A stretch of 64,000 nt of DNA, taken from the IMG/VR virus record IMGVR_UViG_3300044693_000070, positions 1,978 through 65,977 of that record; one strand, given 5' to 3'. This document shows positions 12,864-63,508 of this stretch, one piece after another. Below the pieces are notes generated by a model. It was not told the origin of the DNA. It did no database searches and saw nothing but the letters and a program-made list of their open reading frames with translations. Made by a program: the position numbers and the translations under genes. Position 1 is the stretch's first letter. Each line of letters opens with the position of its first letter. This DNA is from a virus (lineage: Duplodnaviria; Caudoviricetes).

Positions 12864-12994
12864 CCATGAATCCCGAACTGATCCTTCCCGTCATCAGTGT
12901 CGCGTCGTTCATCTTCGGTGTCGTCGGCCTGGCACTGTGCATCGATTACTATGTCGAGCGCCGCTTCGGCATTCACGCGGAGGACTGGAAATGA
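12860..12994 (+). CDS. small single-pass membrane protein (44 aa)
   Basis: MTMNPELILPVISVASFIFGVVGLALCIDYY...; ATGA overlaps at both ends. Confidence 0.65.
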   Translation: MTMNPELILPVISVASFIFGVVGLALCIDYYVERRFGIHAEDWK

Positions 12995-13158
12995 AGCAGC
13001 CTATCGCGTGGATCATCGAGCCGATGAAGACGGACTCGCCGCCGTACCTTACGTTGAATCCCGAGGTCGCGGAGAAGCGCCGCAGCAAGGGCGACATCGT
13101 GACGGAATACGTGTCGCAAAAACCCACTACCCAAAACCCCGAGGATGACGACCTGTGA
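12991..13158 (+). CDS. small hypothetical protein (55 aa, ends EDDDL)
   Basis: GGAGG RBS; coupled to rdgC. Confidence 0.7.
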   Translation: MKQPIAWIIEPMKTDSPPYLTLNPEVAEKRRSKGDIVTEYVSQKPTTQNPEDDDL

Positions 13159-14129
13159 AAAGTACGAAACTCATTAAAGCGTTCATACCGTTCGGCAGCA
13201 ATGCCGTGCTGTATGACTGGTGCGGCCGCGCCGCGCGCAATCCGGCCAAGACGGCCGAAGCCATCGATCTCTTCATCGCCAAAGACCCGGCCGCGAACGA
13301 ATGGTCGAACCTGGGCCTGATCGAGCCGCTGGAAGAAGGCAGCTACGTCCACGATCTCGACGGCAAGGCGCGCATGCTCAAGCTGCAATTCAGCGAGCGC
13401 AAACTGCCAGCCTCCGTGCGCGACGAAAAGCTGAACGAGCGCTACCGCGAACTGTGCGAGAAGGAAGGCCGCAAGCTGAACAAGAAGGAGTTCGCGCAAC
13501 TGCGGGAGGACGTGGAGGCGTCGCTGCTGCCGAAGGCGTTCATCACGCGCAGCATCGTGCCGGTGTTCGTGTTCAAGGATCGGCTGATGATCTGCACGTC
13601 GAGCGCATCGAAGGCCGAAAAGGTGCTCGGCCACCTCGTTCGACTGACGCAGGCCCGCAACCTCGAATGGACGTTCAACGAGATCGTCACCGCATGCACG
13701 CCGTCGCACCTGCTGGGCCGCGTCGCACGCGAGAATCTGGTCTACGTGGACGAGGACGAGTCGGCCAGGTTGGAAGCGGGCCTGGCCGCCGTGTTCAAGG
13801 GCGAGGACAAGCGCGCGATCCGCGTGAAGGACCGCGACCTGGCCGCCGAGGAAATCCAGAAGGTAATCACCAGCGGCGGATACGGCACGACCGAACTCGC
13901 AATGCAACTGCGCGTGATCGACGACGTGCTGGCCGGTTTCACGATGACCGACAAGTTGATCTTCAAGGGCATCCGGTTATCCGACACGACGGTTGCCAAC
14001 GTTGGCGCCGACGCGGACGATCTGCACGCGACCTACTGGCTGTTCGCCTCGACGCTCAACTCGATCCTGTCGCATGTCGTGACCGCGCTGAACGACGGCG
14101 ACGGCGGCGATGATGGCGACGATCTCTAA
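13155..14129 (+). CDS. rdgC: recombination-associated protein RdgC
   Basis: SERKLPASV...EGRKLNKKEFAQLREDVEASLLPKAF is typical of RdgC; GTG start. Confidence 0.85.
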   Translation: MKSTKLIKAFIPFGSNAVLYDWCGRAARNPAKTAEAIDLFIAKDPAANEWSNLGLIEPLEEGSYVHDLDGKARMLKLQFSERKLPASVRDEKLNERYRELCEKEGRKLNKKEFAQLREDVEASLLPKAFITRSIVPVFVFKDRLMICTSSASKAEKVLGHLVRLTQARNLEWTFNEIVTACTPSHLLGRVARENLVYVDEDESARLEAGLAAVFKGEDKRAIRVKDRDLAAEEIQKVITSGGYGTTELAMQLRVIDDVLAGFTMTDKLIFKGIRLSDTTVANVGADADDLHATYWLFASTLNSILSHVVTALNDGDGGDDGDDL

Positions 14130-14145
14130 CCGAGGGAAGTCACGT

Positions 14146-14385
14146 ATGCCGCGCGATAAAACGTACGCCCAGCAGGTCAAGGTGATCGTCAATAAGTTCA
14201 TTGCGATGAAGCCGGGCGAGTCGTTCTTCATCGCTGACGTGGAGCCGGACGACGTGGAGTTTCTGCGCCGCCCGGCAGTCGCCGCTGGCTGCGGCATCAC
14301 GATCCGCCGCGTCGAACTGGACGAGATTTACCAGCAGCAGGGCGTGCGCATCTGGCGTGAAGAGGGCGAGTATGACGAACTCTGA
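14146..14385 (+). CDS. small hypothetical protein (ends YDEL)
   Basis: ATG 14146 after GAGGGA. Confidence 0.75.
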   Translation: MPRDKTYAQQVKVIVNKFIAMKPGESFFIADVEPDDVEFLRRPAVAAGCGITIRRVELDEIYQQQGVRIWREEGEYDEL

Positions 14386-14686
14386 CGACATCGACCACGC
14401 CGACATGCTGCGCCAAGCCGCCGATCCAGAATGCCAGCTATGCGACGGGTCCGGCGTCTTCTACGGCAACGTGGCCGTGTGCGGCTGCGTGAACTCGCAG
14501 CACCACAAGCGCGTGCTCGATGCGACTGTCGAACATGCGCAGCGCTACAAAGAACTGTTCCACTCCATGCAGGACAAGGTGCTCGACGGCCAGGATGAAC
14601 TGGTTCGTCGCGGGCAGGTGATCGCCCGCCAGCGCGCAGTGATCGACGATCTGGAAAAGCGTCTTGGAATCGATCAAGAGTTGTAA
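14372..14686 (+). CDS. hypothetical protein with CxxCxGxG...CxC and coiled coil
   Basis: CQLCDGSG...CGC; GAGGG RBS. Confidence 0.75.
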   Translation: MTNSDDIDHADMLRQAADPECQLCDGSGVFYGNVAVCGCVNSQHHKRVLDATVEHAQRYKELFHSMQDKVLDGQDELVRRGQVIARQRAVIDDLEKRLGIDQEL

Positions 14687-14692
14687 AAACAG

Positions 14693-14722
14693 TTGACAGG
14701 GAATTTCCTTGTCGAATATTAT
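14693..14722 (+). promoter_or_regulatory. sigma70 promoter PR3 with embedded palindromic operator
   Basis: TTGACA-18-TATTAT; GACAGGG-AATTT-CCTTGTC at 14695-14713. Confidence 0.85.
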
Positions 14723-14768
14723 TCAATCCGCAGTAACCACCTTCAACAACGTAAAAGGAAAAGCCATC

Positions 14769-15221
14769 ATGGCAAAAGAAATCTCCAAAACTTCGGCAAC
14801 CAAGACCACCGGCACCGCGAAACGCGCCAGCAAGGCCGAACTGAAAGTCGCGGTGAAGAAGCCCTCGAAGGCGCCGACCAAGGGCTTGCCGATCAACGCG
14901 TCGCCGCGCGCAATCAAAGCGCTGGCTGACCGCGAAGACGCAGCGAAGAAGCCCGCGAAGAAGCACGTCGTCGGCGCCACGCCGACCACCGCGCGTTCCA
15001 AGGTCGCCGCAGCGAAGAAGGAAGCAGGCCCGCAGAAGCACGAGATCAAGAACCTCAAGGCGCTGCGTGCAGTCCTCGACCAGTACCCCAAGGCCACCGG
15101 CTACACGGTCGCATCGCTGCTCGATCACGAGGCGATCTACCTGACCAACACGCGCGGCCGCGTCATCGCTGACGTGCTGCTGGCGAAGAAGCCCTCTGTC
15201 AAGAAGACCCTGCGCGGTTAA
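14769..15221 (+). CDS. Lys/Ala-rich histone-H1-like basic protein
   Basis: ATG 14769 after AAAGGA; AAKKPAKK/KKPSK repeats. Confidence 0.7.
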   Translation: MAKEISKTSATKTTGTAKRASKAELKVAVKKPSKAPTKGLPINASPRAIKALADREDAAKKPAKKHVVGATPTTARSKVAAAKKEAGPQKHEIKNLKALRAVLDQYPKATGYTVASLLDHEAIYLTNTRGRVIADVLLAKKPSVKKTLRG

Positions 15222-15229
15222 GACGGAAC

Positions 15230-15260
15230 AGCCGGTCGCCACGAGCGGCCGGTTTTCTTT
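15230..15260 (+). terminator. probable rho-independent terminator
   Basis: AGCCGGTCGC-CACGA-GCGGCCGGTT hairpin followed by TTCTTT. Confidence 0.65.
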
Positions 15261-15272
15261 GGAGCGGAACAC

Positions 15273-15638
15273 ATGGCAATCGAAACCATCCGCGTGACCG
15301 TCACACGCGATCAAATGAAGGGGCCGGGGAACGACGCGCAGAACGTCTTCATCGCCGGTATTACCCTGTTGAAAACCCTGCTGCGCGCACGTATCCCGGT
15401 CATGGGCATATCCGGCTTCGTGGTCGTCGCACGCGGCAAGCTGACCGTCGAACACGAAGATGGCCTGGACGGCGACGAGTGGCACTACACGTTCGTTGGT
15501 GAGCCCATCGCGGCCGAACTGATGGATGAACTGCTTCCGTCGCTGGCAAAAGGTGGCGGCCACTTCACCTTCACGAAGCCCCTGGCCGAACGCGAGGCCG
15601 CGATCCGCGCGCGGCAGGCAGAAGACGAGGAACTGTAA
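15273..15638 (+). CDS. hypothetical protein, paralog A
   Basis: Shares VARGKL...EDGLDGDEWHYTFVGEP...LAEREAA with the next gene. Confidence 0.85.
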   Translation: MAIETIRVTVTRDQMKGPGNDAQNVFIAGITLLKTLLRARIPVMGISGFVVVARGKLTVEHEDGLDGDEWHYTFVGEPIAAELMDELLPSLAKGGGHFTFTKPLAEREAAIRARQAEDEEL

Positions 15639-15995
15639 ATGGCCGACACGACTATCAAAATCACGGTTACGCGCGACGAACTGCACCACCGCGACGACCC
15701 CGATCTGCAACTGACGATCAACGGCGGCAAGGTCGTCGAGAAGCTGCGCAATGCGGGCATCCCGGTCATCGGCAGCAGCACGATCCTGGCCGTCGCACGC
15801 GGCAAGCTGGAGATCGAATACGAGGACGGCCTTGACGGCGATGAGTGGCACTACACGTTCGTCGGTGAGCCCGTCATGCCAGAGGCGCGGCGCGGGCCGC
15901 ACGGCCACGTGCAGAGCATCCTGTTGACCGACAACCTGGCCGAGCGCGAAGCCGCAGTGCGCGCCCGCCTCCAAGCCGAAGAGGACGAGCTATGA
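15639..15995 (+). CDS. hypothetical protein, paralog B
   Basis: Tandem paralog of 15273..15638. Confidence 0.85.
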   Translation: MADTTIKITVTRDELHHRDDPDLQLTINGGKVVEKLRNAGIPVIGSSTILAVARGKLEIEYEDGLDGDEWHYTFVGEPVMPEARRGPHGHVQSILLTDNLAEREAAVRARLQAEEDEL

Positions 15996-16375: not shown

Positions 16376-16758
16376 TGGAACGCGCAGAGGAAATGACGCG
16401 CGCAGCGGCCCGGCTAATCGGTTTGGACGTGAGCGGCTACACGTGGAATGCAAATGTGCTCGGGCTGATCCAGGGCACCGAGTTTTCTGGTGATCCGGCG
16501 AAGGTTTTCTCGCCGCTGACCGATCCGTGCGATGCGTTCATGGTCGAGGCGTCGCTGCCGATGTCCGTGAAGTGCGAGTACAACGGCTTCCGCCTGGCTA
16601 TGCACGTATCGACGCCGCGCCTGGGCCTGGAGAACCTGGGCTACATGACGAGCGCGCGTGCCGATCTGGTCGAGGACATCGTGCGCGGCCGCATGCTGGC
16701 CGTCACGACGTTCGCGCACCTCGTCGCACTTGCGGAGGACGAAGGCAATGGCGGATGA
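16372..16758 (+). CDS. hypothetical protein
   Basis: AGGAGG RBS, GTG/ATG start. Confidence 0.75.
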   Translation: MMERAEEMTRAAARLIGLDVSGYTWNANVLGLIQGTEFSGDPAKVFSPLTDPCDAFMVEASLPMSVKCEYNGFRLAMHVSTPRLGLENLGYMTSARADLVEDIVRGRMLAVTTFAHLVALAEDEGNGG

Positions 16759-17056
16759 CTACCTGATCGACCACGTGGGGAAGGAAATGCGACAGACCAC
16801 AATGCCCGCCGAGATCGTGAAGTCGATCAGGCCCGATAGCACCGGCTACGCGGGTCATGCGATGGCGCTGCAAATCGCGGGCGAAGAAGTAATCGTGATG
16901 GCGCGCAATTTGAACAGCCTCAATATCGTGTTCAATTACATCGAGGCGCACTACTGGAAGGGCAACGCGAATCGAATGGCAACCCTGCGCACCACGGCAT
17001 GTCCCGAGGTCGTGGTCTGCGCAAAGCGCGACGTGCAACTCGACGAAGAACTTTAA
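16748..17056 (+). CDS. hypothetical protein (ends LDEEL)
   Basis: ATG 16748 (MADDYL) after GGAGG/GAAGG. Confidence 0.75.
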   Translation: MADDYLIDHVGKEMRQTTMPAEIVKSIRPDSTGYAGHAMALQIAGEEVIVMARNLNSLNIVFNYIEAHYWKGNANRMATLRTTACPEVVVCAKRDVQLDEEL

Positions 17057-17076
17057 CCAAGGAAAGGAAGAACATC

Positions 17077-17711: not shown

Positions 17712-17715
17712 ATGC

Positions 17716-17751
17716 AAAAAGGCCCGGCGCAGATTTCTCTATCGCCGGGCC
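17716..17751 (-). terminator. rho-independent terminator between convergent operons
   Basis: GGCCCGGCG...CGCCGGGCC stem with a T5 tract on the minus strand. Confidence 0.75.
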
Positions 17752-45044: not shown

Positions 45045-45320
45045 TTAGATATCGTCGTCGCTGGCGGCCGGGGCGCCTGCCGGTTGTTCGGCGGGCTTCT
45101 CGTCCTTCTTGCTCTTACCGCCCTTCGGCGTGTCGGCGGGTGGCAGCTTCATTTCGACCGGCGCGTTATCGACGACGACCTTGCGCAGCGCGTCCTTGTT
45201 GGCGGCATTGATGTCGGCCAGTTCGGCGTCGGTCAGATCGACTTCGGTGTTCGGCTTGACGAGGACGCGCTTGCCCGCGCGGTGCAGGACGATGCTGTGA
45301 TTGGTGATGCGTTTTGCCAT
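45045..45320 (-). CDS. small protein after capsid gene (gpFI position), ends SDDDI
   Basis: GGAG RBS; disordered C-terminal half. Confidence 0.75.
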   Translation of the reverse strand: MAKRITNHSIVLHRAGKRVLVKPNTEVDLTDAELADINAANKDALRKVVVDNAPVEMKLPPADTPKGGKSKKDEKPAEQPAGAPAASDDDI

Positions 45321-50278: not shown

Positions 50279-52342
50279 TTAAGCGAGCGCACTCGCCATC
50301 TTGCCAAAGTCAAATTTTACAGCACCGCTAAACGGCTTTTCCTGCTCTGGTGTCCGTACGAGATCGTTCTTGTCCCACTCGTCGGCCCACGACGGCGGGT
50401 TATTCCAATCGATGCTTTCGACCTTCACGAACGACGACACGGCCACGCCAATGCAGTAGTACGACAAGTCCCACGCCTCGTTGCGGACGTTCGTGTTGTG
50501 CTCCCATCCTTTCGGCGTTCGCACCTCGGCGCACAGTTCGGCGTAGAACGTGTCGTCGAGCCAGTCCGGCATGCGGTACATGCCCTTGCCCGGTTCGACG
50601 CAATCCAGGCGGCCATCAAGGTCGTCTTTCAGGATCGTCGGGTTCAGCATCAGCACTGGAATGTCGCCGCGTGCGCCCGACTTGGAATCCTTGCGGCTGC
50701 TGTCGGGGAAGCTGACGCGCGTGCGCGGCTGGCCCGGCGTCGAGTCGCCTTTCAGCAGCGTGAAGCGGCGATGCTTGTTCATCTTCACCAGCTTGCGATA
50801 GAACTCGTATGCCTTCGTCGTCGCACCTTTCTTACCGCCCGAGTCGCAGCCGGTCATCTTGATCGACATGAGGCGGCCGGACCCGTCAGCGAGCGGGTAT
50901 TCCTTCTCCATGACCTGTTCGATCAGCAGTTCCCAATCCTCGGCGTAGGCGTGCGGCTTGATCTCTTCCGGGTGCCCGTCTTCGTCCAGGCGCTTCGACT
51001 TCTTCACGAGGAAGCGGTCGATCACGGCGATGTCGAACGGATAGCCCGGCATGATGCCGAAGACCTGCACGACGAACGAAGACTTCTGCACGTCCACGGT
51101 GGCGATCAGGAAGCGCACGCCCTCGGGAACGACCTTCTCGCCAAGCGTGAATTCGGCGCGGGCCTTGATCGTTTCCGGCAGGCGAATTTCCATGCGCGCG
51201 CGGCTGTAGTACGGCTCGCCCAGGTCGTTGTTGTAGAACTTTTTCAGCGTCTCTTCCGTGCCGGTGCGCTCGAAGTCGTCCATCGCGTCGAGGTACGTCA
51301 CGGTCAGCTTCTTCCATGTCGTGAACGCAGCGGCCACGCCGCGCAGCCAGAACGACGCGATCAGCGAGCGCACCGACTTGCCGAAGCGCTGACCGAACTT
51401 GTTGATGGCCTCGCCGTCCTTCACCCACATGCCCCACAGGTTCATTTCGTAGCGGTCGTCCGGCATGATCTTCTGCGCGCACTTCGGACATTCCATGTAG
51501 ACCGTCTCGGCCACTTCGAGATTCGACATGCCCTCTTTGCGGTCCCACTTGAGCATTTCAAACTTACCCTCGAAATAGTGGTCGCAGTGCGGGCAAGGCC
51601 AGTACCAGCGGCGCCGGTCGCCACGGTTATACAGGCCGATAATCCCGTCGCACGGCGGCGCCTCGTGCGGGGTGCGCGGAATCCATTTGATGTCTTTCAC
51701 CTCGCGCGATGGCGACGATTCGGCCACGCACATCGCGTTCGATCCGAAGGTCGTGGTTCGCTTCGCAGCCAGGTCGTACGGCTCGCCCTCGCCGTCCACG
51801 TCGTCCACCATACGATCCCGGTCGGTCAGCACAACGCGGCCGATTGGCTTACCGGCCAGTTCGGTCGGCGTCGGCCAGGACAGCGACAGCATCATGCCGG
51901 TGTTATAGAGCTTGTCGAACTTGTTGTCGTTGTCCGCGCCCGGCAGCAGCATTTTGCCGATCTCGGGCGAATAGCGGTTCAGGCGGTCGATACGGCGCAT
52001 GGAGAAGTCGCGCGCGGCCGTGTTGGTCGGGCACACGATCATCATGTCCATCGGATCGACCTTGATGCTGTAGGCCGTGCAGTTCACGACCAGGGCATCG
52101 GTCTTTGCCGACTGCGCCGGGCCGACGAAGATCATGCCGTTGTACGTCGTGGACGCGAACACGTTCATCGGTTCGACCATGTACGGCGTCGTTGCGTTGT
52201 ACCAGGGGCCGACGTACGCGCCCGGCGAGTTCACGATCCTGTATTTCGCTGCGGCTTCGGCCACGGTGGTGCGCTCGGGCGGCCGCAGCATTTCGGCGCA
52301 CGAGATCACCAGTGCTTCGATACTGTCAAAGTTCATCGTCAT
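50279..52342 (-). CDS. terL: terminase large subunit (GpA family)
   Basis: Walker A GPAQSAKT; SSP, CPHC/CPKC; TVDVQ and DSGG nuclease motifs; NEAWD-YY. Confidence 0.95.
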   Translation of the reverse strand: MTMNFDSIEALVISCAEMLRPPERTTVAEAAAKYRIVNSPGAYVGPWYNATTPYMVEPMNVFASTTYNGMIFVGPAQSAKTDALVVNCTAYSIKVDPMDMMIVCPTNTAARDFSMRRIDRLNRYSPEIGKMLLPGADNDNKFDKLYNTGMMLSLSWPTPTELAGKPIGRVVLTDRDRMVDDVDGEGEPYDLAAKRTTTFGSNAMCVAESSPSREVKDIKWIPRTPHEAPPCDGIIGLYNRGDRRRWYWPCPHCDHYFEGKFEMLKWDRKEGMSNLEVAETVYMECPKCAQKIMPDDRYEMNLWGMWVKDGEAINKFGQRFGKSVRSLIASFWLRGVAAAFTTWKKLTVTYLDAMDDFERTGTEETLKKFYNNDLGEPYYSRARMEIRLPETIKARAEFTLGEKVVPEGVRFLIATVDVQKSSFVVQVFGIMPGYPFDIAVIDRFLVKKSKRLDEDGHPEEIKPHAYAEDWELLIEQVMEKEYPLADGSGRLMSIKMTGCDSGGKKGATTKAYEFYRKLVKMNKHRRFTLLKGDSTPGQPRTRVSFPDSSRKDSKSGARGDIPVLMLNPTILKDDLDGRLDCVEPGKGMYRMPDWLDDTFYAELCAEVRTPKGWEHNTNVRNEAWDLSYYCIGVAVSSFVKVESIDWNNPPSWADEWDKNDLVRTPEQEKPFSGAVKFDFGKMASALA

Positions 52343-52919
52343 CCTCTTCTTGTGCTTTGGCGACGACCGCCTCGGCCTTTTCGATCACAGCCGGATTCGT
52401 CGGCTGCTTGCCGAATTCGTCGAGCACATTGCGATACAGTTCTTCCAGCATGCCGTCGCCCAACGCCTTCACGATGCTGCGCTGGCGGTCGGTCAGTTCG
52501 GCCTGGCGATCCACCGCATCGGACATCAGGCGCACGCTCATCTTCACCAGCTTCATGAGGCCACCGATGACGCCGACGACGCGTTCCGTGGGCCACAGGT
52601 TGCCCTCGCGCTGCTCGAACTCTTGGCGCGAGCGCTGGCCCGCCCAAAACTCCTTTGTCAGCATCTTCGGCAGGTCGTTGTGGTGCATCTTCTTGATGTA
52701 CGTCTCGATGTCGTACGCGGGCTTCACGAGATACGGGGCCACCTCATGCACCGCGTAGATATCGACGCCGTTGCGCGTGCCGCAGGGCTTGCACTTGTGG
52801 ATTTTCGCAACGATGCTGCGGTGATCCATGCGGAACAACTCGCCAAGCTGGGACAGGTTCGCGCCGTCGTACAGGATCGCGCGCGTGGTGTCATCGGTTC
52901 CCTCAGTTCTTTTCGCCAT
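52326..52919 (-). CDS. terS: terminase small subunit (Nu1/DUF1441-like)
   Basis: N-terminal HTH-like region, K-FW---R-R--FE---G-LW; overlaps the terL start. Confidence 0.85.
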   Translation of the reverse strand: MAKRTEGTDDTTRAILYDGANLSQLGELFRMDHRSIVAKIHKCKPCGTRNGVDIYAVHEVAPYLVKPAYDIETYIKKMHHNDLPKMLTKEFWAGQRSRQEFEQREGNLWPTERVVGVIGGLMKLVKMSVRLMSDAVDRQAELTDRQRSIVKALGDGMLEELYRNVLDEFGKQPTNPAVIEKAEAVVAKAQEEDDDEL

Positions 52920-53193: not shown

Positions 53194-55134
53194 TCAAAGT
53201 TCGTCGTCCTCGTAGCAGTCGGAGCCCGGACCACACGGCCCGCCAGCATCGCCGCAGCGCGGACAGTGCTCGTGTTGCAGATACTCGTCGGGCACGTCCA
53301 GTTCGTCCACCTCGACCAGATTCCCAGCCTCGGTGCAGTTCAGGAATTCCTCGCCGGTCATCTTCGCGTAGCTGTCGCTTTCGGGATGGTAGTACCAGCG
53401 CTGTTCGCTGGTCAGCGGGAACTCTTCGATGGCCTGCGTCGGCGCGTCGTGATCCGTCAGCACTTCGACCACCTTATCCCACTCGGCATCGCCCGGCTTC
53501 ACCTTGCGTCCTTTCAGCAGCTTTTTCAACTTGCGGGCCATGCGCTTCATGATCGTGAATAGCATGTCCTGCGCGTCGTTCTTCGCCGTCAGCGCTTCGA
53601 CCACGGCCTCGTCGAGCGTGCCAACGCAGATCAGCAGGAACACGGTGACGCGGTGCTTCTGCCCCTGGCGTGCCAGGCGGCCGATGAATTGAAGGTACAG
53701 TTCGAGCGACCACGGAATGTCGAAGAACACGATGATGTGCCCACCGGCTTGCAGGTTCAGGCCGTGCCCGCCCGACTGCGGGTGCATCAGCAGCATCGGG
53801 ATTTTCCCCTGGTTCCACTTCTTGATGCACTTGCCCTCGCGGTCCATCAGCGTCGCCTGCGGGAACGCCTTCATCAGCCGGTCTTTCGACGCGCGGTGGT
53901 GATAGCCGACGAGGATCGGCTTACCCTGCGACTCTTCGACGATCTGCTTCAACTCTTCGATCTTGTGCTCGTGAATCTTGTGAATCTTCGTGATCTTCAC
54001 GTGCTCGTCTTCGTCTGTCTGACCTGGCTCCAGCTTCGTTTCGTACAGCACGCCGGATGCCATTTGCAGCAGCTTCGCGGACAGTGCTGCGGCGGTGTCG
54101 GCCACCACTTCGCTGCCGTCGTCGAGCGTCACTACCATGTCGCGTTCGAGCGTCAGGTACAACTCGCGCTGTGCTGGTGTCATGACCACCTTCCTCTGCA
54201 CGAACAGCGGCGGCGTGCGCGGCAAGTAGTCCTCTTCCTTCATGACCAGGCAGATATCGCTGATCTTCGCCAGGATTTCCTTCTCGGCGCCTGGCCGCAG
54301 CTTCCATTTCCGCGTGTAGCGGTTCTCGGTGAAGTAGCGCTCGCGGAAGTCGGTGATGCCGCGACCGAAGCGCTTGCCGCGATCCAGCAGGTAAATCTGC
54401 GCGAACAGGTGTTCGTACGATTCGGCGGCCGGTGTCGCGGTGAGAATGTGCAGGCGCTTGATGAAGCCCGGCTGATCGCGCACGGTTTGCAGCGCCTTGA
54501 AGCGGGCCGAGTTGTGATCCTTGAAGCCGCTCGACTCGTCGATGATGATCGTCTTGTACGGCCAGCGACGGCGGGCCTTCCAGTACGACACCAGCCATTC
54601 GATCCAGTCGCGCGAAATGATGTGGACCGACGCCTTGCTGTTCGTCGCGGCCTCGCGCAGTTCCTCGCGCTTCTGCGCGGCCATGCGGGTCGCGTGCGCG
54701 CGGGCTTCCTTGTCGCGCTCGGATGCGAACAGCGCGTTGCTGTTGGCGCGGCCAGCGGCCATGCCCTCGCGGTACGCCTGCTTCACGCGATCATCGTCGT
54801 CATCGACGTGGATGACCGACACGCCCAGGTGCGCCAGGTGGCTCCACTTCCTGAACTCGTTCGGCCAGGTCTGCGTGGCGACGCGCAGCGGGCCGATGAT
54901 GAGCACAGGATCGTCGTCCGCGAACTCGTTCACCAGATCGGCAACGAGCGTCGCGCATGTCACCGTCTTGCCCAGGCCCATGTCGATGAACAGCCCGGAG
55001 AACGGGTTATCGTGCAGGAACTTGAGGCCGGTGTTCTGGTATCCGTGCATCTGCTCGCGGTGCAGTTCTACCTCGGCAAACTGCGCGCGGATGGCCTCGC
55101 GGACGGCTTCGATTGTGCGGTTCTCGCGCATCAT
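53194..55134 (-). CDS. SNF2-family helicase
   Basis: DMGLGKT, IIDESS, LTATP, G-GLNLQ, QFIGRLARQGQ; start ATG 55134. Confidence 0.92.
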   Translation of the reverse strand: MMRENRTIEAVREAIRAQFAEVELHREQMHGYQNTGLKFLHDNPFSGLFIDMGLGKTVTCATLVADLVNEFADDDPVLIIGPLRVATQTWPNEFRKWSHLAHLGVSVIHVDDDDDRVKQAYREGMAAGRANSNALFASERDKEARAHATRMAAQKREELREAATNSKASVHIISRDWIEWLVSYWKARRRWPYKTIIIDESSGFKDHNSARFKALQTVRDQPGFIKRLHILTATPAAESYEHLFAQIYLLDRGKRFGRGITDFRERYFTENRYTRKWKLRPGAEKEILAKISDICLVMKEEDYLPRTPPLFVQRKVVMTPAQRELYLTLERDMVVTLDDGSEVVADTAAALSAKLLQMASGVLYETKLEPGQTDEDEHVKITKIHKIHEHKIEELKQIVEESQGKPILVGYHHRASKDRLMKAFPQATLMDREGKCIKKWNQGKIPMLLMHPQSGGHGLNLQAGGHIIVFFDIPWSLELYLQFIGRLARQGQKHRVTVFLLICVGTLDEAVVEALTAKNDAQDMLFTIMKRMARKLKKLLKGRKVKPGDAEWDKVVEVLTDHDAPTQAIEEFPLTSEQRWYYHPESDSYAKMTGEEFLNCTEAGNLVEVDELDVPDEYLQHEHCPRCGDAGGPCGPGSDCYEDDEL

Positions 55135-55421
55135 TTCATGATCTCCTTGAATTGCTCCATGTCGTCCAGCACGTAGACTTCGGCGCCGTGCTCGCGCATT
55201 TCCTTGATCCGCACGACCTGAATCGGCGCCAGGCCCGATTCGCCGCGTCCCGGCCGCTTCCACTCGACCCACACGTAGCGGCCGCGCCGCAGGTACAGGC
55301 GATCCGGTACGCCGTTGCAGGTCGGCGTCTCGACCTTGATCGTCCACCAGCCGCGCCGCTGCGCATACTCGTGCGCGTCGCTGGTGTTGTCGCTTTCGAT
55401 GCGCGGGCGATTACTCTTCAT
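55131..55421 (-). CDS. VRR-NUC domain nuclease
   Basis: GVPDRL...VEWKRPG...L---Q---I; start ATG 55421. Confidence 0.88.
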   Translation of the reverse strand: MKSNRPRIESDNTSDAHEYAQRRGWWTIKVETPTCNGVPDRLYLRRGRYVWVEWKRPGRGESGLAPIQVVRIKEMREHGAEVYVLDDMEQFKEIMK

Positions 55422-57603
55422 CGTCGTCCTCTTCTTCCGGCAGTGCTCGCTCGTCCTGGCACGCACGGCACACGCGCATGTCGTCGGGCACGTGGCGCAG
55501 TTCTTCCCACGGCTCGCGCACGACCTTCGCCTGGCGGCCGCACAGCGCCGTCATGGTTTGCAGGTCGATGATGTGCGCGGTCTTCTGCTTCGGCAGCACG
55601 GCCACGCGGTAGCCCTGGCGTCCGGCCAGGCGCGGGTTCTGCACGCTCAGGCCGATGTCGTCCAGGCGCGCATACGCCTCACGCACGTACCAGGCGTAAT
55701 CGATGTCGTCGGGCATTTCGTCGGGCAGGTCCATGCATGGGAATGCGCCCGTCGTGCCCGCGACGCGCTGGCCGTTGGCCTTCTTGATGTATCCGCGCTC
55801 GCCCTCGGCGTAGTACCACCGGACCATCTTGCCCAGGTAGTTGCCGTGCATGTCGTATCCGCCGCCGACCATCTTGCCGTCGATCTTCACGTTGCCGACC
55901 TGCTTGACGCCGATGAACTGCGTGAAGTCCTGGCACGCCCTGATCGTGTCTTCGATGTCGGCGCCGTTCGTCAGGTATTCGACCACGGCAGTCGAGCAAA
56001 TGTCGAACGTCGGATCGTGCTTGGCTTGTAGGCCCGCTTTTGCGAACAGCCCCTTGCGCTTCACCTCGGGCACGAGCGTCCCGGCCTTCTTGTCTTCGAT
56101 CATGGCGATCTCGCCGGGCTTCTTCACGTCTTCGACCAGGGCGATGTAGCTGTTCACGTCGCGCGAGAACACGCCCAGGTAGCGCACAGCTTCGGTCTGG
56201 AACGAGGTCGCGCATTCCCACTCGAACACGATGGCGTTGAACAGCCAGTAGCGATCACGCGGGATCACGGTAACGATGCCGTCCGTGTTCGCAGAGATCA
56301 CGGTGAAGCCGTTCAATTCCAGTTCCTCGATCAGCATCAGCAGCGAAAGCTGTCCGGTGATCGTCGTGGAGATCAGCAGGCGCGGCGAGTACACGACGGC
56401 GTACGGCGATCCGGTCTTGCCGAACGTGCCGTTATTAACGATCTTGAAGGAGTCGGAGCGCTTCTTGTACTTCATCGACTGCTGCATGTCGCCCGCCTTC
56501 TTCAACTTGGCGGCCTTTTCCTTGTAGCTGTCGCGCAGGTTCACGAACTTGCTGAACACGCCCAGGAAGTTCTGGCCCAGCGCGGCCGGGACGTAGCCGC
56601 AGGCGAGCATCAGGCGCGGGTAGTAGGCGCGCACGTCGCGGTCTTCGATAATCGTGTCTTCGTCCGCGCGGTACGAGCGGCGCTTCTCCTTGCTGTGCAG
56701 GCCACCGATGCCCATCTTGTAGTCGGTGAAGCCGATGCGAATCTGGAGTTCCTTGATCTCTTGTGGCAGGCGCACGACGCCGTAGCTGCGCTTCTTCGCG
56801 CCTGGCGGGTCCGGCTCGGCGCTGACGAAGAAGCGGGTCGAGGTGATGACGCGCAGGACGTTTTGCAGCAGCGGCGTTTGAAACTTGATGAACGCGGGCG
56901 GCTCGTACTTGAACGAGAACGTCTTCACGACCGGCTTCTCGACCTTCTGGCCGGTGACGCGCTCGACCTCGAACTTGATGAGCGTTTCCGCGATCTGCGC
57001 GTCCGACTTCGAGCGCACGTCGATGCCGTATTCGGCGCTGATCTCGTTGCGGATTTCGATCTCTTCGCGCAGGTTCAGCACGAGCGAACGCGTCGTGTCC
57101 AGATCATTGCCGAGGTACATGCGCATCAGCGGCCGCCGCTTCTCGCCCACGGCTTCACTCGGGTCGATGGGGAGTTCCTGCAACTTCTTCATGTTCATCC
57201 GCGCGCCGTACTTTTTCAGCGACAGCTTGACGCCGGGCGCCACGTCGAACAGGTCGATGTGATCCAGCCACTCGGGCGGCTTCACGTTGTACTTCTCATA
57301 GAACTGGTACGGCCGCATGCGGTACTGGATCAGGTCATCGCTGGCCTTCTTCAACAGCGCATTGCTCGCACCGGCCATCGCCAGCGCGATCATCGGAATG
57401 TCGTACGTGTTGCCGTTGAACGTGTATATGCGGAAGTTGCGCATGATGCGCGCGATCTTCGGGCGGTCGAGTTCGAGGCCGTCGTACTTTTCGATGATGA
57501 CCTTCTTGCCCGTCTCGATGTTGATGAACCCGATGCTCCAGTAGTCACGATAGCACTCGGTATCGCTGCCCGCTTCCTGCTTCTCTTCGAGGAATTTAAT
57601 CAT
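55411..57603 (-). CDS. family B DNA polymerase with 3'-5' exonuclease
   Basis: Exo DTEC, FNG--YD, YL-ND; pol DV-AYYP, K---NGTFGK, NTDG. Confidence 0.9.
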   Translation of the reverse strand: MIKFLEEKQEAGSDTECYRDYWSIGFINIETGKKVIIEKYDGLELDRPKIARIMRNFRIYTFNGNTYDIPMIALAMAGASNALLKKASDDLIQYRMRPYQFYEKYNVKPPEWLDHIDLFDVAPGVKLSLKKYGARMNMKKLQELPIDPSEAVGEKRRPLMRMYLGNDLDTTRSLVLNLREEIEIRNEISAEYGIDVRSKSDAQIAETLIKFEVERVTGQKVEKPVVKTFSFKYEPPAFIKFQTPLLQNVLRVITSTRFFVSAEPDPPGAKKRSYGVVRLPQEIKELQIRIGFTDYKMGIGGLHSKEKRRSYRADEDTIIEDRDVRAYYPRLMLACGYVPAALGQNFLGVFSKFVNLRDSYKEKAAKLKKAGDMQQSMKYKKRSDSFKIVNNGTFGKTGSPYAVVYSPRLLISTTITGQLSLLMLIEELELNGFTVISANTDGIVTVIPRDRYWLFNAIVFEWECATSFQTEAVRYLGVFSRDVNSYIALVEDVKKPGEIAMIEDKKAGTLVPEVKRKGLFAKAGLQAKHDPTFDICSTAVVEYLTNGADIEDTIRACQDFTQFIGVKQVGNVKIDGKMVGGGYDMHGNYLGKMVRWYYAEGERGYIKKANGQRVAGTTGAFPCMDLPDEMPDDIDYAWYVREAYARLDDIGLSVQNPRLAGRQGYRVAVLPKQKTAHIIDLQTMTALCGRQAKVVREPWEELRHVPDDMRVCRACQDERALPEEEDDDEE

Positions 57604-57672: not shown

Positions 57673-58311
57673 TTACAGGTCGTCTTCGTCGCCGTCACCA
57701 CCGGAGCCTGCGCCCTCGGTTGCAACATCGTCCCATGCATCGGAATCGTCGATACGACCCTGGCCGAACGGGGTGTCGTCCTTCGAGAACATCACGCCAA
57801 CCAGGCCAGCGTTGAGGCGCTTGCCGTGCTTGTTGTTCTGCACCCACGGACGCAGCAGCACGTGACCCCATGCGCCGCCGTAGAACAGTTCCTTGATCTT
57901 TTCGAGGTCTTCGACCGGATCAAGTTTTGCACCAGACTGATCGCGGAGCGTCGGGCGATTCGTCTCGCGGGCGTTGACGAACCAGTGACCGGCGTAGCTG
58001 TTCACGTTCTCGTCATCGTCGTCCGAGGCGTTGGCATCGCCGTCGCGCAGGAACTTCTTGTCGGCCGGGACGCTGATCTTCGCTTCGGCCAGGATGCGCT
58101 TCATTTCTGCGGCGATCACGGTCTTGGCTTCTTCGTGCGTACCCTTCGGCATCATGCCGGTGATGCTGAATTTGGCCTCGCCTGCATCGCCCTCCTTCTT
58201 CCACGCCTTATCGACGTGGGGATAGGAGAAGCGCACGTTATCGACACGGATCATGCCGTTCTCGTACAGGACGAAGTTCTTGCCACGTTTTTTGACTACC
58301 AGTGCGGACAT
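57673..58311 (-). CDS. single-stranded DNA-binding protein (DUF2815/gp2.5-like)
   Basis: VRFSYPH...KFSIT...Y-G-W...GKR-NAGL-GV-F-KD--PFG; acidic tail. Confidence 0.88.
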   Translation of the reverse strand: MSALVVKKRGKNFVLYENGMIRVDNVRFSYPHVDKAWKKEGDAGEAKFSITGMMPKGTHEEAKTVIAAEMKRILAEAKISVPADKKFLRDGDANASDDDDENVNSYAGHWFVNARETNRPTLRDQSGAKLDPVEDLEKIKELFYGGAWGHVLLRPWVQNNKHGKRLNAGLVGVMFSKDDTPFGQGRIDDSDAWDDVATEGAGSGGDGDEDDL

Positions 58312-59660: not shown

Positions 59661-59666
59661 GGACGA

Positions 59667-60047
59667 TTAGATGTCGTCGTCGCCTTCTTCGACGGTTTCG
59701 CCGGCCAGGGCTTTCGTCGCGGCGTCGAACACGGCCTTCACCTTGTCGGCCGGGATTTCCGCCATCTTGGCGACACCAGCGACATCGCTGATGATCTTCT
59801 TGGCGACGGCGGCGCCCTGTTCTTCCTTCACCTTCGACAGCGCGGCCTGCATTTCTTCGACGGTCGGACCTTTCGGCTCGTCCTTCTTCACGTCGGTCTT
59901 CGCGGTGCCGGTCTTGCCGCCCTTGCCTGCTGCCGGTGCCTTCGTTTCAGCGGCGGTTGCGGTCGATGCGGCGCCCGATTCACCCAGGCGTGCGGCGGTG
60001 TTGGCGTTCAGGGCAGCGATCAGGTCAGCAATCAGTTTTTCCAGCAT
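59667..60047 (-). CDS. replication-module protein with helical C-terminal domain (ends GDDDI)
   Basis: LEKLIADL--AL--NT N-terminus, Ala/Lys linker; typical of genes upstream of DUF2800. Confidence 0.8.
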   Translation of the reverse strand: MLEKLIADLIAALNANTAARLGESGAASTATAAETKAPAAGKGGKTGTAKTDVKKDEPKGPTVEEMQAALSKVKEEQGAAVAKKIISDVAGVAKMAEIPADKVKAVFDAATKALAGETVEEGDDDI

Positions 60048-60133
60048 TTTGTGTTACTCCGTTTAAGTGAGGTTGGCGGGACAATTTTGTGCGCTGACGT
60101 ACCGCCGAAATCCGTCAACGCATTTTGCAAAAA

Positions 60134-60523
60134 CTACTCTTTCAGGACACCCGACAGGTCGATGCCTTCACCACCTTCACCGAACAGCGCGAACGCTGCA
60201 TTCGGGTCGGTGGATTGAGCGACTACTAGACCGACGCTGTAGCGTGCTAACTCCACATCGGCGGTGAGAAGCGCAGTTCGATCCGCTTCGCTGATCGCCT
60301 GGTCAAGATCGCCGCGTTGTACAGTGAGGATCAGACCTTGCATCACATCGCACGCATCGAGCAACGATTCACGCTGCCTTGCACCCTGTAACGCGTACCG
60401 CAACATGTGCAGTTTCGTCATCAACAGGGTGATCTGCTTGACCGTCAGTTCAGCGACTTCACGTGGATCGAATTCCACCGATTCGTGTAGCCGATTCGCT
60501 GCGATCAGGTCGTAGTTCTTCAT
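60134..60523 (-). CDS. hypothetical helical protein
   Basis: Start ATG 60523; first gene of the leftward replication operon. Confidence 0.65.
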   Translation of the reverse strand: MKNYDLIAANRLHESVEFDPREVAELTVKQITLLMTKLHMLRYALQGARQRESLLDACDVMQGLILTVQRGDLDQAISEADRTALLTADVELARYSVGLVVAQSTDPNAAFALFGEGGEGIDLSGVLKE

Positions 60524-60562
60524 TCGTTTCGCCCTGTCGTTGTTGGTCAGTGCATGGATTGA

Positions 60563-60608
60563 ATCATCGCATGGATTCTTGCTGCGTGTCAAGCGTTTGT
60601 GGGATAAT
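60563..60608. promoter_or_regulatory. overlapping divergent sigma70-like promoters
   Basis: Minus: TTGACA (60592-60587)-18-GATGAT; plus: TTGCTG (60579)-18-GATAAT (60603). Confidence 0.55.
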
Positions 60609-60656
60609 TCTCACGTCTTTTTGAGATATCTACTTACACAACGAATGGAGGTTATT

Positions 60657-60947
60657 TTGTCGGTCAATTTTCCGGCCTGGGTGAAGGCCAAAGATGGTGA
60701 AGGTACGCTGGAGTCACGACGCCTGCGCTACCTTGTTTTGACAGCCGCGATCAACAGCACACCGAACGGTAGCGTCGCGGCACTGGCGGACCTGTGCGGC
60801 ATCGACCGCCCGCAGGTTCATGCATCAATTCGGGAAGGTCGTTGCTCACCGCAGATGGCGAAGAAGATCGAGGCAGCATGTGGTCGAAAAATCGTACGTC
60901 GTGAGTGGCTGATGTTCCCGCTCGATATCGAAGAACTGACGCAATGA
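60657..60947 (+). CDS. Cro-like HTH regulator
   Basis: SVAALADLCGIDRPQVHASIREG--S---AKKIE; TTG start after GGAGG. Confidence 0.75.
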   Translation: MSVNFPAWVKAKDGEGTLESRRLRYLVLTAAINSTPNGSVAALADLCGIDRPQVHASIREGRCSPQMAKKIEAACGRKIVRREWLMFPLDIEELTQ

Positions 60948-63508
60948 AGAACGAAGAATATACGTCCAAAAATTCAGGCCCGTTGGCCTACCTGGGATCG
61001 CAACTGATAGACAACGCCTACGACATCATCCCGATTGCCGTGGGTAAGAAAGCGCCAGGCTTCGATAACTGGAGTAAGGCCCGCTCGACCAAGCCGCAAC
61101 TGACGGAATGGATCGAGTCGGGCCATCGTCATTCCGGCGTCGGCATCCTGACGAAGCGTACGCCCGCCGTTGACCTCGACATTCGTGACGAGCGGATCGC
61201 GCTCGAAGCCGAGGCGAAGGCGCGCGAGATTTTCGGTGACGCACCGCTGCGCATCGGCATGCCGCCGAAACGCCTGCTCGTGTATCGCACCGACACACCG
61301 TTCCGCAAGATGCGCTCGAACCGCTATCAGGATGAATGGGGCGAACTGCACCAGATCGAAATCCTGTGCGACGGCCAGCAGTTCGTGGCGTACCACATTC
61401 ACCCCGACACCGGCAGGCCGTATTCCTGGCCGAGCGAGAAGATCGACGATGACGGCGACGTGATCGAGGCCGGTGGTCCGCTGTCGATTCCGCAGAACGC
61501 GCTTACAGCGATCACACCCGACCAGTGCCAGGAACTCATCGACTGGTTCCACGAACGCGCGGCGAAAGAGGCCGACTGGAAGCTGGTGAAGAAGCAGCGC
61601 GACAGCAACCTCTCGAACATCGACATCGACGACCCGTTCATCGAAGACACGCAGGCCGTGGACATCAGCGACACGGAATTGCGCTCGCGCCTGATGATGG
61701 TCCCGAACCCCGACGATTACGACACGTGGATTCAGGTCGGCATGGCCCTGTACCACCAGTACGACGGCGAGGAAACCGGCATCGAACTGTGGAAGGAGTG
61801 GAGCGAGACGGCAGACAACTACGATCAGGACGCGCTCGAACGCCGCTGGGACGATTTCGGCATCGACGGCAAGAAGCGTGCGCCGATCACCGCGCGATTC
61901 ATCCTGAAACTGTCGAAGGAAGCTGCGGCGGAAGGCGCGGCCGCGCTCGCGGTCAAGCTGCGCGATATGTTCAACGAGGCGAAGGACATCATCGGCTGGA
62001 ACAAGGCGCGCGACGCGGCACGCGAAGCCGAGATCGACGGCATGACCCGCGCGACGCTCGCCAGTTTGGCGAAGGATCGCATCGACATCATCACTGGCGC
62101 TAAGACCCCGCTTTCCGAGGTGAAGAAGGCCATCGCTTTCGCGCCGTCCAAGGGCGAGAAAATCCCCGGCTGGTGCGAGAATTGGGTCTACGACACGAGC
62201 GATGACCGCTTCTACGACACCGGCCGCAATATCTCGACCACGAAGCAGGGCTTCGACGCGATGTTCGACCGCTACGCGATGACGAAGAAGGACATCTTGG
62301 ACGGCAAAACGTCGCCGTCGAATTCCGCGTCGAACCTGGCGCTGAATCTCTACAAGATCAAGGTCGTGAACGGTCGCCGGTACGAGCCGGGCGCCGATCC
62401 GGTGTTCTATCGCACCGATGGCGTCTTCGCCAACACGTACGCGGCGCACGAGATTCCCGAACTGCCGGAAAAGCTGCTGCCACGCGACAAGGCGGCCATC
62501 AAGCGCGTGAAGAATCACCTGAAACACCTACTCGTGAAGCAGGAAGAACGCCGCATTCTGCTCGATTGGCTGTCGTGGATCGTGCAGAACCCAGGCAAGC
62601 ACGCGAATTGGGCGATCCTGTTGCAAGGCGTCGAGGGCGACGGCAAATCGTTCTTCGGTTTCCTCATGCGTGCGGTGATGGGCGTGTCGAACGTCCAGAT
62701 GCTCAACGCGCACATCCTCGAATCGTCGTTCACCGATTGGGTCGTCGGCCAGTGCCTCACGTGTATCGAGGAAGTCCGCCTCATCAACGCGAACAACAAG
62801 TACGAACTGCTCAACCGGATCAAGCCGTACATCACGAACAACGTGATCGAGGTTCACCCGAAAGGCAAGTCGCAGTACAACGCGGTGAACACCACGTCGT
62901 ATCTGCTGTTCTCGAACTACCGCGACGCGCTGCCGCTGGACGACGACGGCCGCCGTTACTGCGTGCTGTTCAGCCAGTGGCAGCGCAAGGACAAACTCGA
63001 CGCGTTCAAGGCCGAGAACCCGGACTACTACGAGGAACTGTACGAGACGATCCAGACTTCGGCCCCGGCTCTGCGGAAATGGCTGCTGGAGTGGGAGCAA
63101 TCGGAATCGTTCAAGCCGTACGGCGACGCACCGACCACGGAGGCGAAGCGCTTCATGATCCGCCAGGCGCAGCCGCAATTCATTCAGGACGTGCTCGACC
63201 TGATCGAAGACGGCGCCGATCCGCTGATTTCGCTCGAATTGATCGACAGCGGCCGACTGCTGGAAGTGATGCAGGACCGCTTTCTGGATATCCCGGCGAA
63301 CAAGGCCATCGGCTCGATGTTCTCGCGCTACCGCTTCGAGTCGCTTGGAAAAGTGCGAATCGGGGAATCGGTTCACTCGTTTTACTCGCGCGAACCGGAA
63401 AAATTTCAGTCCGTGGATGACGACGGGACGGTTCGCACCGATCCGCAGAAGGTCCGCGATCACGTGAAGCGGGTGAAAGCTGGCGCCGAGGACGACGATG
63501 AACTCTGA
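60944..63508 (+). CDS. primase-helicase (Prim-Pol, PriCT-2-like and SF3/DUF5906 helicase)
   Basis: GKKAP...GVGI...AVDLD; YD-W--VGMAL...W--WS; LLQGVEGDGKS Walker A. Confidence 0.9.
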   Translation: MKNEEYTSKNSGPLAYLGSQLIDNAYDIIPIAVGKKAPGFDNWSKARSTKPQLTEWIESGHRHSGVGILTKRTPAVDLDIRDERIALEAEAKAREIFGDAPLRIGMPPKRLLVYRTDTPFRKMRSNRYQDEWGELHQIEILCDGQQFVAYHIHPDTGRPYSWPSEKIDDDGDVIEAGGPLSIPQNALTAITPDQCQELIDWFHERAAKEADWKLVKKQRDSNLSNIDIDDPFIEDTQAVDISDTELRSRLMMVPNPDDYDTWIQVGMALYHQYDGEETGIELWKEWSETADNYDQDALERRWDDFGIDGKKRAPITARFILKLSKEAAAEGAAALAVKLRDMFNEAKDIIGWNKARDAAREAEIDGMTRATLASLAKDRIDIITGAKTPLSEVKKAIAFAPSKGEKIPGWCENWVYDTSDDRFYDTGRNISTTKQGFDAMFDRYAMTKKDILDGKTSPSNSASNLALNLYKIKVVNGRRYEPGADPVFYRTDGVFANTYAAHEIPELPEKLLPRDKAAIKRVKNHLKHLLVKQEERRILLDWLSWIVQNPGKHANWAILLQGVEGDGKSFFGFLMRAVMGVSNVQMLNAHILESSFTDWVVGQCLTCIEEVRLINANNKYELLNRIKPYITNNVIEVHPKGKSQYNAVNTTSYLLFSNYRDALPLDDDGRRYCVLFSQWQRKDKLDAFKAENPDYYEELYETIQTSAPALRKWLLEWEQSESFKPYGDAPTTEAKRFMIRQAQPQFIQDVLDLIEDGADPLISLELIDSGRLLEVMQDRFLDIPANKAIGSMFSRYRFESLGKVRIGESVHSFYSREPEKFQSVDDDGTVRTDPQKVRDHVKRVKAGAEDDDEL

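Follow-up and report, generated by a model that had tools for sequence, protein, structure and literature searches.

Why should about 14 otherwise unrelated DNA-handling proteins of a 66-kb phage, seen here through a window of 64,000 nucleotides, end in what looks like a common five-residue C-terminal tail, made up of acidic residues followed by a single Leu or Ile? The first-pass annotation had listed 13 such endings, all of which were found at the genes it named (Table 1): 12 follow the strict [DE][DE][LI]-COOH pattern (10 tipped with L, 2 with I), and the thirteenth, IDQEL, seems to be a real, slightly degenerate copy, because its orthologs read GIDDEL or GVDQDL. Together with a variant absent from that list (EDQEPL), the carriers in this phage comprise 12 strict copies and 2 variants, the largest set among the tag-bearing phages examined. 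Calling the listed proteins unrelated, however, went somewhat too far, as two of them (15273..15638 and 15639..15995) are paralogs, and the tagged set therefore does not represent 13 independent families, even though the endings themselves are all present. The accompanying estimate of well under one such ending by chance held, but for ~71 rather than ~80 genes (the calls come from a codon-usage caller, for which the C-termini are set by stop codons alone, and the small-gene list may hold a few errors): the internal tripeptide rate of the proteome gives an expectation of 0.20 strict endings versus the 12 observed (binomial p 2e-18), and in 2000 trials in which the 10 C-terminal residues of each protein were shuffled, strict endings numbered 0.6 on average and at most 5, which places the observed number above every shuffle.

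Table 1. Carriers of the acidic C-terminal tail and the DNA polymerase, with window coordinates
Protein	Coordinates	Strand	C-terminal tail	Matches	Orthologs and relatives
240-aa protein	11573..12295	+	EDQEPL (variant)		EDQEPL, DDQEPL, EDQDEL (two relatives), QDQDEL, EDPDPL, EDQDPL
Early protein of unknown family, 55 aa	12991..13158	+	EDDDL	No match in Pfam and PHROG searches	EEDDEL, TEDDEL, DEEEEL, ETEEEL, ETEDEL, EEEDEL
RdgC homolog	13155..14129	+	DGDDL, past the RdgC domain	PF04381 E 2e-30, residues 16-313 of 324	DDDL, DGEL, EWEL, DDEV
phrog_7200 protein (function not known), 91 aa	14110..14385	+	EYDEL	phrog_7200	7 orthologs end [YF]D[DE]L
109-aa protein	14357..14686	+	IDQEL (degenerate)		see text; EEDDEL in phiAxp-2
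121-aa protein	15273..15638	+	EDEEL		Same orthologs matched as by its paralog
phrog_31589 protein, 118 aa	15639..15995	+	EEDEL	phrog_31589	
108-aa protein	16730..17056	+	LDEEL		[LFY]D[DE]EL
DUF7443 protein	45045..45320	-	SDDDI, after Pro/Ala-rich linker	PF24227 E 2e-18	GDEDL (SS2019XI), AEDEV (YSD1)
Small terminase subunit (TerS)	52326..52919	-	DDDEL	phrog_141 E 6e-44; Pfam DUF1441	Tips track lineage: EEDDEL, YDDEEL, VDDDEV, LDDEEI, EEEAEF
SNF2-family helicase	53194..55347	-	EDDEL, after Cys-rich segment	Pfam SNF2-rel_dom and Helicase_C	Tag gained/lost between lineages
DNA polymerase	55411..57603	-	EDDDEE (no hydrophobic tip)	phrog_1252 E 6e-170	DEEDED, EDDEDE, EDDDDD in close relatives
Enc34/T7-type SSB (DUF2815)	57673..58311	-	DEDDL, end of disordered acidic tail	PF10991 E 1e-21	Tipped in all but one of 88 genomes (exception L109, NPEAG)
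phrog_7721 protein, 126 aa	59667..60047	-	GDDDI	phrog_7721	Tagged in most; tips by lineage I, L, M, V
Primase-helicase	60905..63508	+	DDDEL, right after basic helix	Prim-Pol, PriCT-2, DUF5906	Tips by lineage L, V, I, F, GL

Might such a pattern be a mere by-product of DNA or translation, with the tails encoding a termination context or the Shine-Dalgarno site of the gene that follows? Of the 13 tagged genes, ten touch or overlap their downstream neighbour, and their GAG/GGA-rich codons do look Shine-Dalgarno-like; the codons for Asp and for the terminal Leu/Ile, however, do not, the 60 nt downstream of the primase, SSB and SNF2 genes are free of any other gene, and the structural operon, although equally tightly packed, is without acidic tails. 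Since the codons (GAC/GAT, GAA/GAG and CTG/CTC/CTT/CTA/ATC) as well as the stops (TAA/TGA) vary among the copies, the signal lies at the level of the protein rather than the DNA, and a DNA-level motif, being scarcely credible given the varied codons and the tagged genes without a close downstream neighbour, was rejected.

Comparison with other phages points in the direction of selection on the tails. For each of the tagged early proteins, 5-7 orthologs that are 34-81% identical to it have the tag as well, whereas the tails of untagged neighbours drift; RdgC, TerS, SSB, exonuclease, primase and the DUF7443 protein retain it across ten named phages; and in a set of 88 related genomes of Casjensviridae type the tag is found repeatedly, its tip (L, V, I, F, M or GL) depending on the lineage. 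The unrelated control phages D3, YuA, Xp10 and phiE125, three of which are GC-rich, have only 0-2 such endings each, and the tag is not family-wide either, as Sano, a phage of the same family, is almost without it (0 such endings). To judge from the residues themselves, the tag is a short motif and not a polyanion, the acidity being restricted to the last 4-6 residues in most of the tagged proteins and the primase-helicase tail being partly basic (5 basic residues among the last 20).

The tips, furthermore, change in step. Val is found at the end of 5 protein families in Chi-like phages, Ile in BUCT551-like phages (6 families), L059/L062 (4) and L119 (4), Phe in L124 (4), and GL in Nazgul (5), and the SSB and primase tips agree in most of the 78 genomes having both proteins. 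When 12 phylogenetically independent genome pairs differing in their SSB tip were drawn from the 88 genomes (on a tree from a quick LG+G4 search), the other proteins matched the tip of their own genome (cis) 43 times and that of the partner (trans) 10 times, which at the level of pairs amounts to 9 cis, 0 trans and 3 ties (p=0.004), or to 6 vs 0 under a stricter both-sides count (p 0.03). This pooled contrast replaced binary tree tests on single protein pairs, which were underpowered (2-3 concordant vs 0, p 0.25-0.5). The 12 contrasts could be less independent than they look, owing to phage mosaicism. Part of the tip pattern could also be tolerated drift, because a single mutation separates L, I, V and M, which are also similar in their chemistry; tips are mixed in some genomes, phiAxp-2 having both L and M, and the phage described here both L and I. 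The last residue nevertheless demonstrably covaries among different proteins within one genome in these alignments, and the first-pass proposal of a short linear motif spread over the genome can be upheld, with selection acting on it at the protein level: the tails are conserved in orthologs next to diverging flanks, occupy a terminal and, in the SSB, disordered site, and measure 4-6 residues.

Does each tail, then, have no common reader and simply serve the protein that carries it, inhibiting or solubilising that protein as a DNA mimic, with a hydrophobic end that imitates a stacked base, as has been suggested for T7 gp2.5 and its own cleft? Every identifiable carrier binds or processes DNA, and removal of the Enc34 SSB tail alters DNA selectivity (PMC5686142), both of which would fit; most tags, however, are only 4-6 residues long and sit behind neutral or basic segments, and it is hard to see ten separate DNA-binding surfaces demanding, and jointly switching, the same last residue, which makes this explanation unlikely.

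Nor does the host genus set the tip, as Salmonella phages differ in it (V in YSD1 vs I in a 97% match to BAU.Micro_SLP-22), and so do the Burkholderia phages AH2 and Nazgul. This bears on two explanations in which the reader could lie in the host; the first-pass annotation had put forward the anti-degron version of one and, as a possibility, the other. Acidic C-terminal residues block recognition by ClpXP and Tsp, and the tags might accordingly govern stability through a protease or adaptor that recognises them, either as a degron timing the removal of the proteins or as an anti-degron shielding floppy C-termini; a protease pocket, being a shared reader as well, could even account for the concerted tips. 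Tips differing within one host genus are a poor fit with a conserved host protease, though, and the structural proteins are without the tag. The anti-degron version is further disfavoured because acidic residues alone would suffice (the tipless polymerase tail would do), which leaves a conserved and covarying hydrophobic last residue unpredicted, and we hold a stability signal of either kind to be improbable.

The other would have the tags mimic the C-terminus of host SSB, plugging into or blocking the chi, PriA, RecQ, ExoI and DnaG pockets. The general form is indeed in common (acidic residues in a row, then a hydrophobic end with its carboxylate free, acting in bacteria as a docking peg on a disordered tail), some of the relatives read DDDIGL or DDDIDI, which is near DDDIPF, and one relative, R22L, encodes a protein ending in DDDIPF itself. 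The host SSB C-terminus, on the other hand, is nearly invariant in proteobacteria, whereas the phage tips are lineage-specific within a host genus, and an IPF ending is absent from the proteins of this genome (its Enc34-type SSB has GDEDDL); mimicry is disfavoured for these reasons and seems improbable. The architecture is also reversed, bacteria having one carrier of the peg and many pockets, and this phage many carriers.

The reading we favour, to which we would assign a probability of roughly 0.5, is that the tail [E/D]-D-D-[E/D]-[L/I]-COOH constitutes a short linear motif read by one shared putative site, since the concerted tip changes point to a shared reader. The candidate site would recognise three features, namely the run of acidic residues, the aliphatic side chain at the end and the free carboxylate, and the reading of the tag by it might gather the tagged proteins, or hand them over, at replicating and packaging DNA; the presumed clients, which make up the majority of the phage's DNA-transaction proteins, would be the SSB, the primase-helicase, the SNF2 helicase, RdgC, TerS, the capsid-adjacent small protein and 7-8 small early proteins. 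Phage-encoded readers are judged the most plausible: the Enc34-type SSB's own groove might be one, the tail competing with ssDNA and thereby helping to evict or hand off the SSB, or else some other conserved replication or packaging protein might serve. More tentatively, and with less than even odds, one may imagine a lineage-private address code, in which either one phage reader, its pocket co-evolving with the tip, would admit the ~14 proteins to the DNA factory, or the tails would displace the phage SSB from ssDNA; related phages would then be insulated from one another, or from host defences that sense their SSB, by the divergence of the tips (L, V, I, F, GL).

A covariation scan of the SSB, exonuclease, primase, SNF2, TerL and TerS alignments between I- and L-tip clades gave no clean reader, and in the SSB core no column tracks the tip. 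The top covarying column, primase position 719 (S vs H), fails in L059, L066, L069 and L101, and TerL position 590 (R vs H) follows the phylogeny, H being present in two L-tip genomes, L116 and L120, as well; both break down when read in tree order. The complete genome had no match to the beta clamp family PF00712, which was matched in control genomes, and none to the gp45 family PF09116, for which the control genomes were without a match as well. An Rfam search returned no family at gathering score and no DUF2815-associated RNA.

How does the shared-site reading compare with what has been described for other phages? In T7, the tails of gp2.5 and gp4 bind the front basic patch of the polymerase gp5 (PMC12339929), and the likeness is considerable: the phage SSB here shares its structural type with that of T7 (T7/Enc34 OB fold) and has a disordered tail, and both it and the primase-helicase finish in the same short run of acidic residues closed by a hydrophobic one. 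Crystals of Enc34 SSB show the tail lying in a neighbouring OB fold's groove, with 842 A2 buried (PMC5686142). Unlike in T7, at least 13-14 proteins (rather than two) carry the tail here, including ones for recombination, packaging and early proteins without known function, and the tip is aliphatic (L/I) instead of Phe and varies by lineage; moreover, a polymerase is argued against as the universal hub, because the tag-bearing phages use two unrelated polymerase types. The T4 C-termini acting on the clamp gp45 (those of gp43, gp33 and gp55) are interchangeable (PMC2988020), which likewise represents one epitope on different proteins serving one hub, but the T4 motif is mainly hydrophobic, the client proteins here are far more numerous and, as mentioned, no beta-clamp family gene was detected.

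The first-pass annotation knew of no description of a tag at this scale, and our literature search also found no paper on a tag spread over the genome of Casjensviridae or Chi-like phages, although the principle as such has been published for T7 and T4. If one site does read the tag, replication, recombination and DNA packaging would be organised through a single five-residue handle in the large family formed by Chi-like and Nazgul-like phages and their relatives (with Salmonella, Klebsiella, Pseudomonas, Burkholderia, Xanthomonas and Aeromonas hosts), and the precedents of T7, with two clients, and T4, with three, would be extended to a code spanning the proteome. Many small proteins to which no function has been assigned would gain a role as clients of the same hub, the peptide itself would be a handle that should pull down that hub or poison infection, and the lineage-specific tips would constitute a natural specificity experiment.

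Some features of individual proteins deserve mention. In an AF2 model of the full-length SSB (41 homologs in the alignment), the core has pLDDT >90, and residues 181-212, at 42-66, form a disordered, undocked tail. The 59667..60047 protein consists of an N-terminal helix, a T/K/A-rich linker, a conserved C-terminal domain of ~50 aa and the tail. For the polymerase, the acidic ending reported at first stands, but the name PolB goes back only to a sub-threshold Pfam match. The claim that portal, capsid, tail and lysis proteins are without the tag, lastly, is true of this genome, though the DUF7443 gene belongs to the head module, adjoining the major capsid gene on its downstream side, and it does not extend to the relatives: unlike the portal here, those of FoX4, L077 and L091 are tagged.

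All 13 acidic C-termini listed in the first-pass annotation are present at the genes named there, with 12 of them fitting a strict [DE][DE][LI]-COOH pattern, and the remaining one (IDQEL) being degenerate in the window, while four of its five detected orthologs end in DDEL. A 14th protein had been overlooked, the tail of which, EDQEPL, is kept in seven relatives (EDQEPL, EDQDEL, EDPDPL and similar; EDQDEL in two of them) and has the appearance of a tag variant containing proline. The carriers comprise RdgC (PF04381), the small terminase (phrog_141), an SNF2 helicase, an SSB of the Enc34/T7 type (PF10991), a Prim-Pol/PriCT-2/DUF5906 primase-helicase, a DUF7443 protein adjoining the capsid gene and seven or eight small proteins without a known family; two of these small proteins, starting at 15273 and 15639, are paralogs and so depart from the description as mutually unrelated. 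The polymerase tail is indeed EDDDEE, acidic without a hydrophobic tip, and the polymerases of close relatives also lack such a tip.

Features discussed, with coordinates in the window unless a locus of the comparison set is named
Feature	Position	Strand	C-terminus or remark
Early-operon protein matching phrog_4786	10935-11609	+	
Overlooked tagged protein, 240 aa	11573-12295	+	EDQEPL
Protein with degenerate tail	14357-14686		IDQEL
Small terminase gene end overlapping large terminase gene start	52326-52342		17 nt, including the tag codons
DNA polymerase of the window phage	55411-57603	-	EDDDEE
Tagged protein with conserved C-terminal domain	59667-60047	-	
Erythrobacter phage R22L protein, 137 aa	L035:4028-4441	-	DDLDDDIPF
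Xylella phage Sano SSB	L041:11319-12128	-	DDDIGL

Gene calling by a self-trained codon-usage score gave ~71 genes, the calls of the C-termini resting solely on stop codons, and the internal tripeptide frequency of these 71 proteins predicts 0.20 strict endings, in agreement with the earlier estimate of well under one, against the 12 found (binomial p 2e-18); shuffling the last 10 residues of every protein (2000 trials) yielded 0.6 such endings on average and 5 at most. Only one of the 12 strict copies falls within the block of structural and lysis genes (Fisher p 0.02), and the acidic stretch does not reach beyond the final 4-6 residues; in the primase, for instance, it is preceded by a basic helix. 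As the Asp, Glu and Leu/Ile codons, as well as the stop codons, differ among the tag copies, the signal is to be sought in the protein rather than in the DNA; an origin as a by-product of Shine-Dalgarno or termination context is contradicted by this codon variety and by tagged genes that have no close downstream gene.

The window (GC ~62%) takes up 64,000 bases of a virus record that consists of one contig of 65,977 bases and is rated complete by CheckV. The primase-helicase of the window shares 52% identity with its counterpart in Pseudomonas phage vB_Pae-SS2019XI and 30-44% with those in Xanthomonas FoX4, Achromobacter phiAxp-2, the Burkholderia phages AH2 and BcepNazgul, Serratia JS26, Xylella Sano and YSD1, a Chi-like Salmonella phage, because of which the phage is, as judged from this protein, a member or a close neighbour of the Casjensviridae. 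In a set of seven IMG/VR relatives with 34-81% identity in early-operon proteins, the acidic tail with a final Leu is retained by all tagged proteins apart from one RdgC, in which the final residue is Ile, and the tails of untagged neighbours in the same relatives are unrelated to each other. Across ten named phages, the tails of RdgC, TerS, SSB, exonuclease, primase, DUF7443 and the 59667-family protein are kept, and endings of the broader [DE][DE][LIVM] form number 8 in SS2019XI, 7 in FoX4, 10 in phiAxp-2 and 9 in YSD1 (0.25-0.35 expected each), against only 0-2 in the unrelated control phages D3, YuA, Xp10 and phiE125 (GC 52-64%), even when a broader pattern is applied. The relatives add a DUF2800 exonuclease, a ParB-HTH protein, Rv2179c-like 3'-5' exonucleases, a Dam methylase and some portals to the carriers, so that the remark that no portal has the tag does not extend to them. 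The tag is not family-wide, as only the SSB and one other protein keep the tail in Sano. On these comparative grounds, the tag is evidently under selection.

The tip of the tag is nearly uniform inside one genome and different between lineages: V in eight YSD1 proteins, L in the window phage, SS2019XI and FoX4, a mixture of L and M in phiAxp-2, GL in about ten Nazgul proteins, and I or F in other lineages. For a tree of 88 genomes (a quick LG+G4 search), 80 IMG/VR loci around the SSB were retrieved, the cores of exonuclease, SNF2 and SSB were used with their last 15 residues cut off, and the tips were then read in tree order. Concerted tip sets occur at separate places on this tree (L-numbers being handles of its genomes): I is shared by six protein families in the Aeromonas BUCT551 clade, by four each in L059/L062 and L119 and by three in the L058-L069 clade, V by five families in the Chi-like clade and two in L122, F by four in L124 and GL by five in Nazgul. 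Binary tests of tip co-change in single protein pairs were underpowered, and a contrast was therefore pooled over 12 phylogenetically independent genome pairs differing in SSB tip, the tips of the other proteins being scored against the SSB tip of their own or of the other genome. They matched their own genome's SSB tip 43 times and the other's 10 times, with nine pairs for the own genome, none against and three ties (sign test p 0.004), or six for and none against (p 0.03) when only families switching on both sides are counted, all of which is to be read bearing in mind that phage mosaicism could lower the independence of the pairs and that a single mutation suffices to interchange L, I, V and M. 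A selected, co-evolving motif shared by these proteins is the reading to which we give a probability of roughly 0.9. Were the tails instead private to each protein, as DNA mimics or solubility aids, their carriers being DNA-binding proteins would be explained, but neither the short length nor the concerted tips would.

For many proteins to change in concert, some selective agent must act on all of them, most simply a single binding site that would recognise the acidic residues together with the terminal side chain and its free carboxylate; whether the tag works as a docking tag for such a common reader seems to us an even bet. A protease reading the tag as a stability signal would likewise be a shared reader, yet an anti-degron does not need a hydrophobic tip, and a host protease leads one to expect no difference within one host genus. 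Such differences are seen: YSD1 has V and another Salmonella phage clade (97% identical to BAU.Micro_SLP-22) has I, and among Burkholderia phages AH2 and Nazgul have different tips too, which speaks for a reader encoded by the phage rather than a conserved one of the host. Mimicry of the host SSB-Ct fits the tag in its general form, but the I-P-F tip is missing and the tips are lineage-specific. As for phage candidates, tag-bearing phages have two polymerase types without mutual similarity detectable by BLAST in the same replication-module slot across the family, namely that of the window phage, with acidic tails, and one ending F-Y-[RM]-K-D (FYRKD in Chi, Nazgul and SS2019XI), the window polymerase having been compared with those of YSD1, Nazgul, SS2019XI and Sano; this argues against the polymerase as a universal reader. 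A search of the complete phage genome for the beta-clamp family (PF00712) detected no gene, and when tip class was compared with the alignment columns of six conserved proteins, no covarying column survived inspection.

The docking-tail principle is already known from T7, where the gp2.5 and gp4 tails bind to a basic patch at the polymerase front (PMC12339929), from T4, where the interchangeable C-termini of gp43, gp33 and gp55 bind the clamp gp45 (PMC2988020), and from the bacterial SSB-Ct. Crystals of the Enc34 SSB, a homologue of the window SSB, show its acidic tail placed in the groove of the OB fold of an adjacent molecule, with 842 A2 buried (PMC5686142). What is new is the scale (~14 clients, packaging and unknown early proteins among them), together with a tip that co-varies and is specific to the lineage; literature searches for a genome-wide tag found no description at this scale, as had been supposed.

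An AlphaFold2 model of the window SSB (41 homologs) has a core pLDDT of >90 and values of 42-66 for residues 181-212, so that this tail is predicted to be disordered. In the SSB of Sano, and also of AH2, basic repeats (SRRS, KKPS) alternating with acidic ones lengthen the tail ahead of a final DDDIGL, and charged tandem repeats of a similar kind are described for the Bas17 SSB tail (2026 preprint on DRT4). The R22L protein carries the exact bacterial SSB-Ct tip, and the Enc34-type SSB of that phage ends DDDIDI. In the Chi-like clade (L042-L044, YSD1) and the neighbouring L058-L069 clade, several acidic tails contain Trp and lack an aliphatic tip (VWDDEE in SNF2, GAWDDE in exonucleases), and may constitute a second tail class.

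In its family alignment, the 59667-60047 protein has a short N-terminal helix, a T/K/A/G-rich low-complexity linker and a conserved ~50-aa C-terminal domain followed by the tag, the domain having looked like a putative small helical DNA-binding module. In an Rfam search of the whole window, no family attained its gathering score, and this applies also to the RNA motif that is reported to lie upstream of SSB genes of the DUF2815 type. The terminase overlap, by the codon-usage gene call, is in another frame. The phrog_4786 match (E 3e-30) is annotated as cysteine dioxygenase, which is unusual for a phage early gene.
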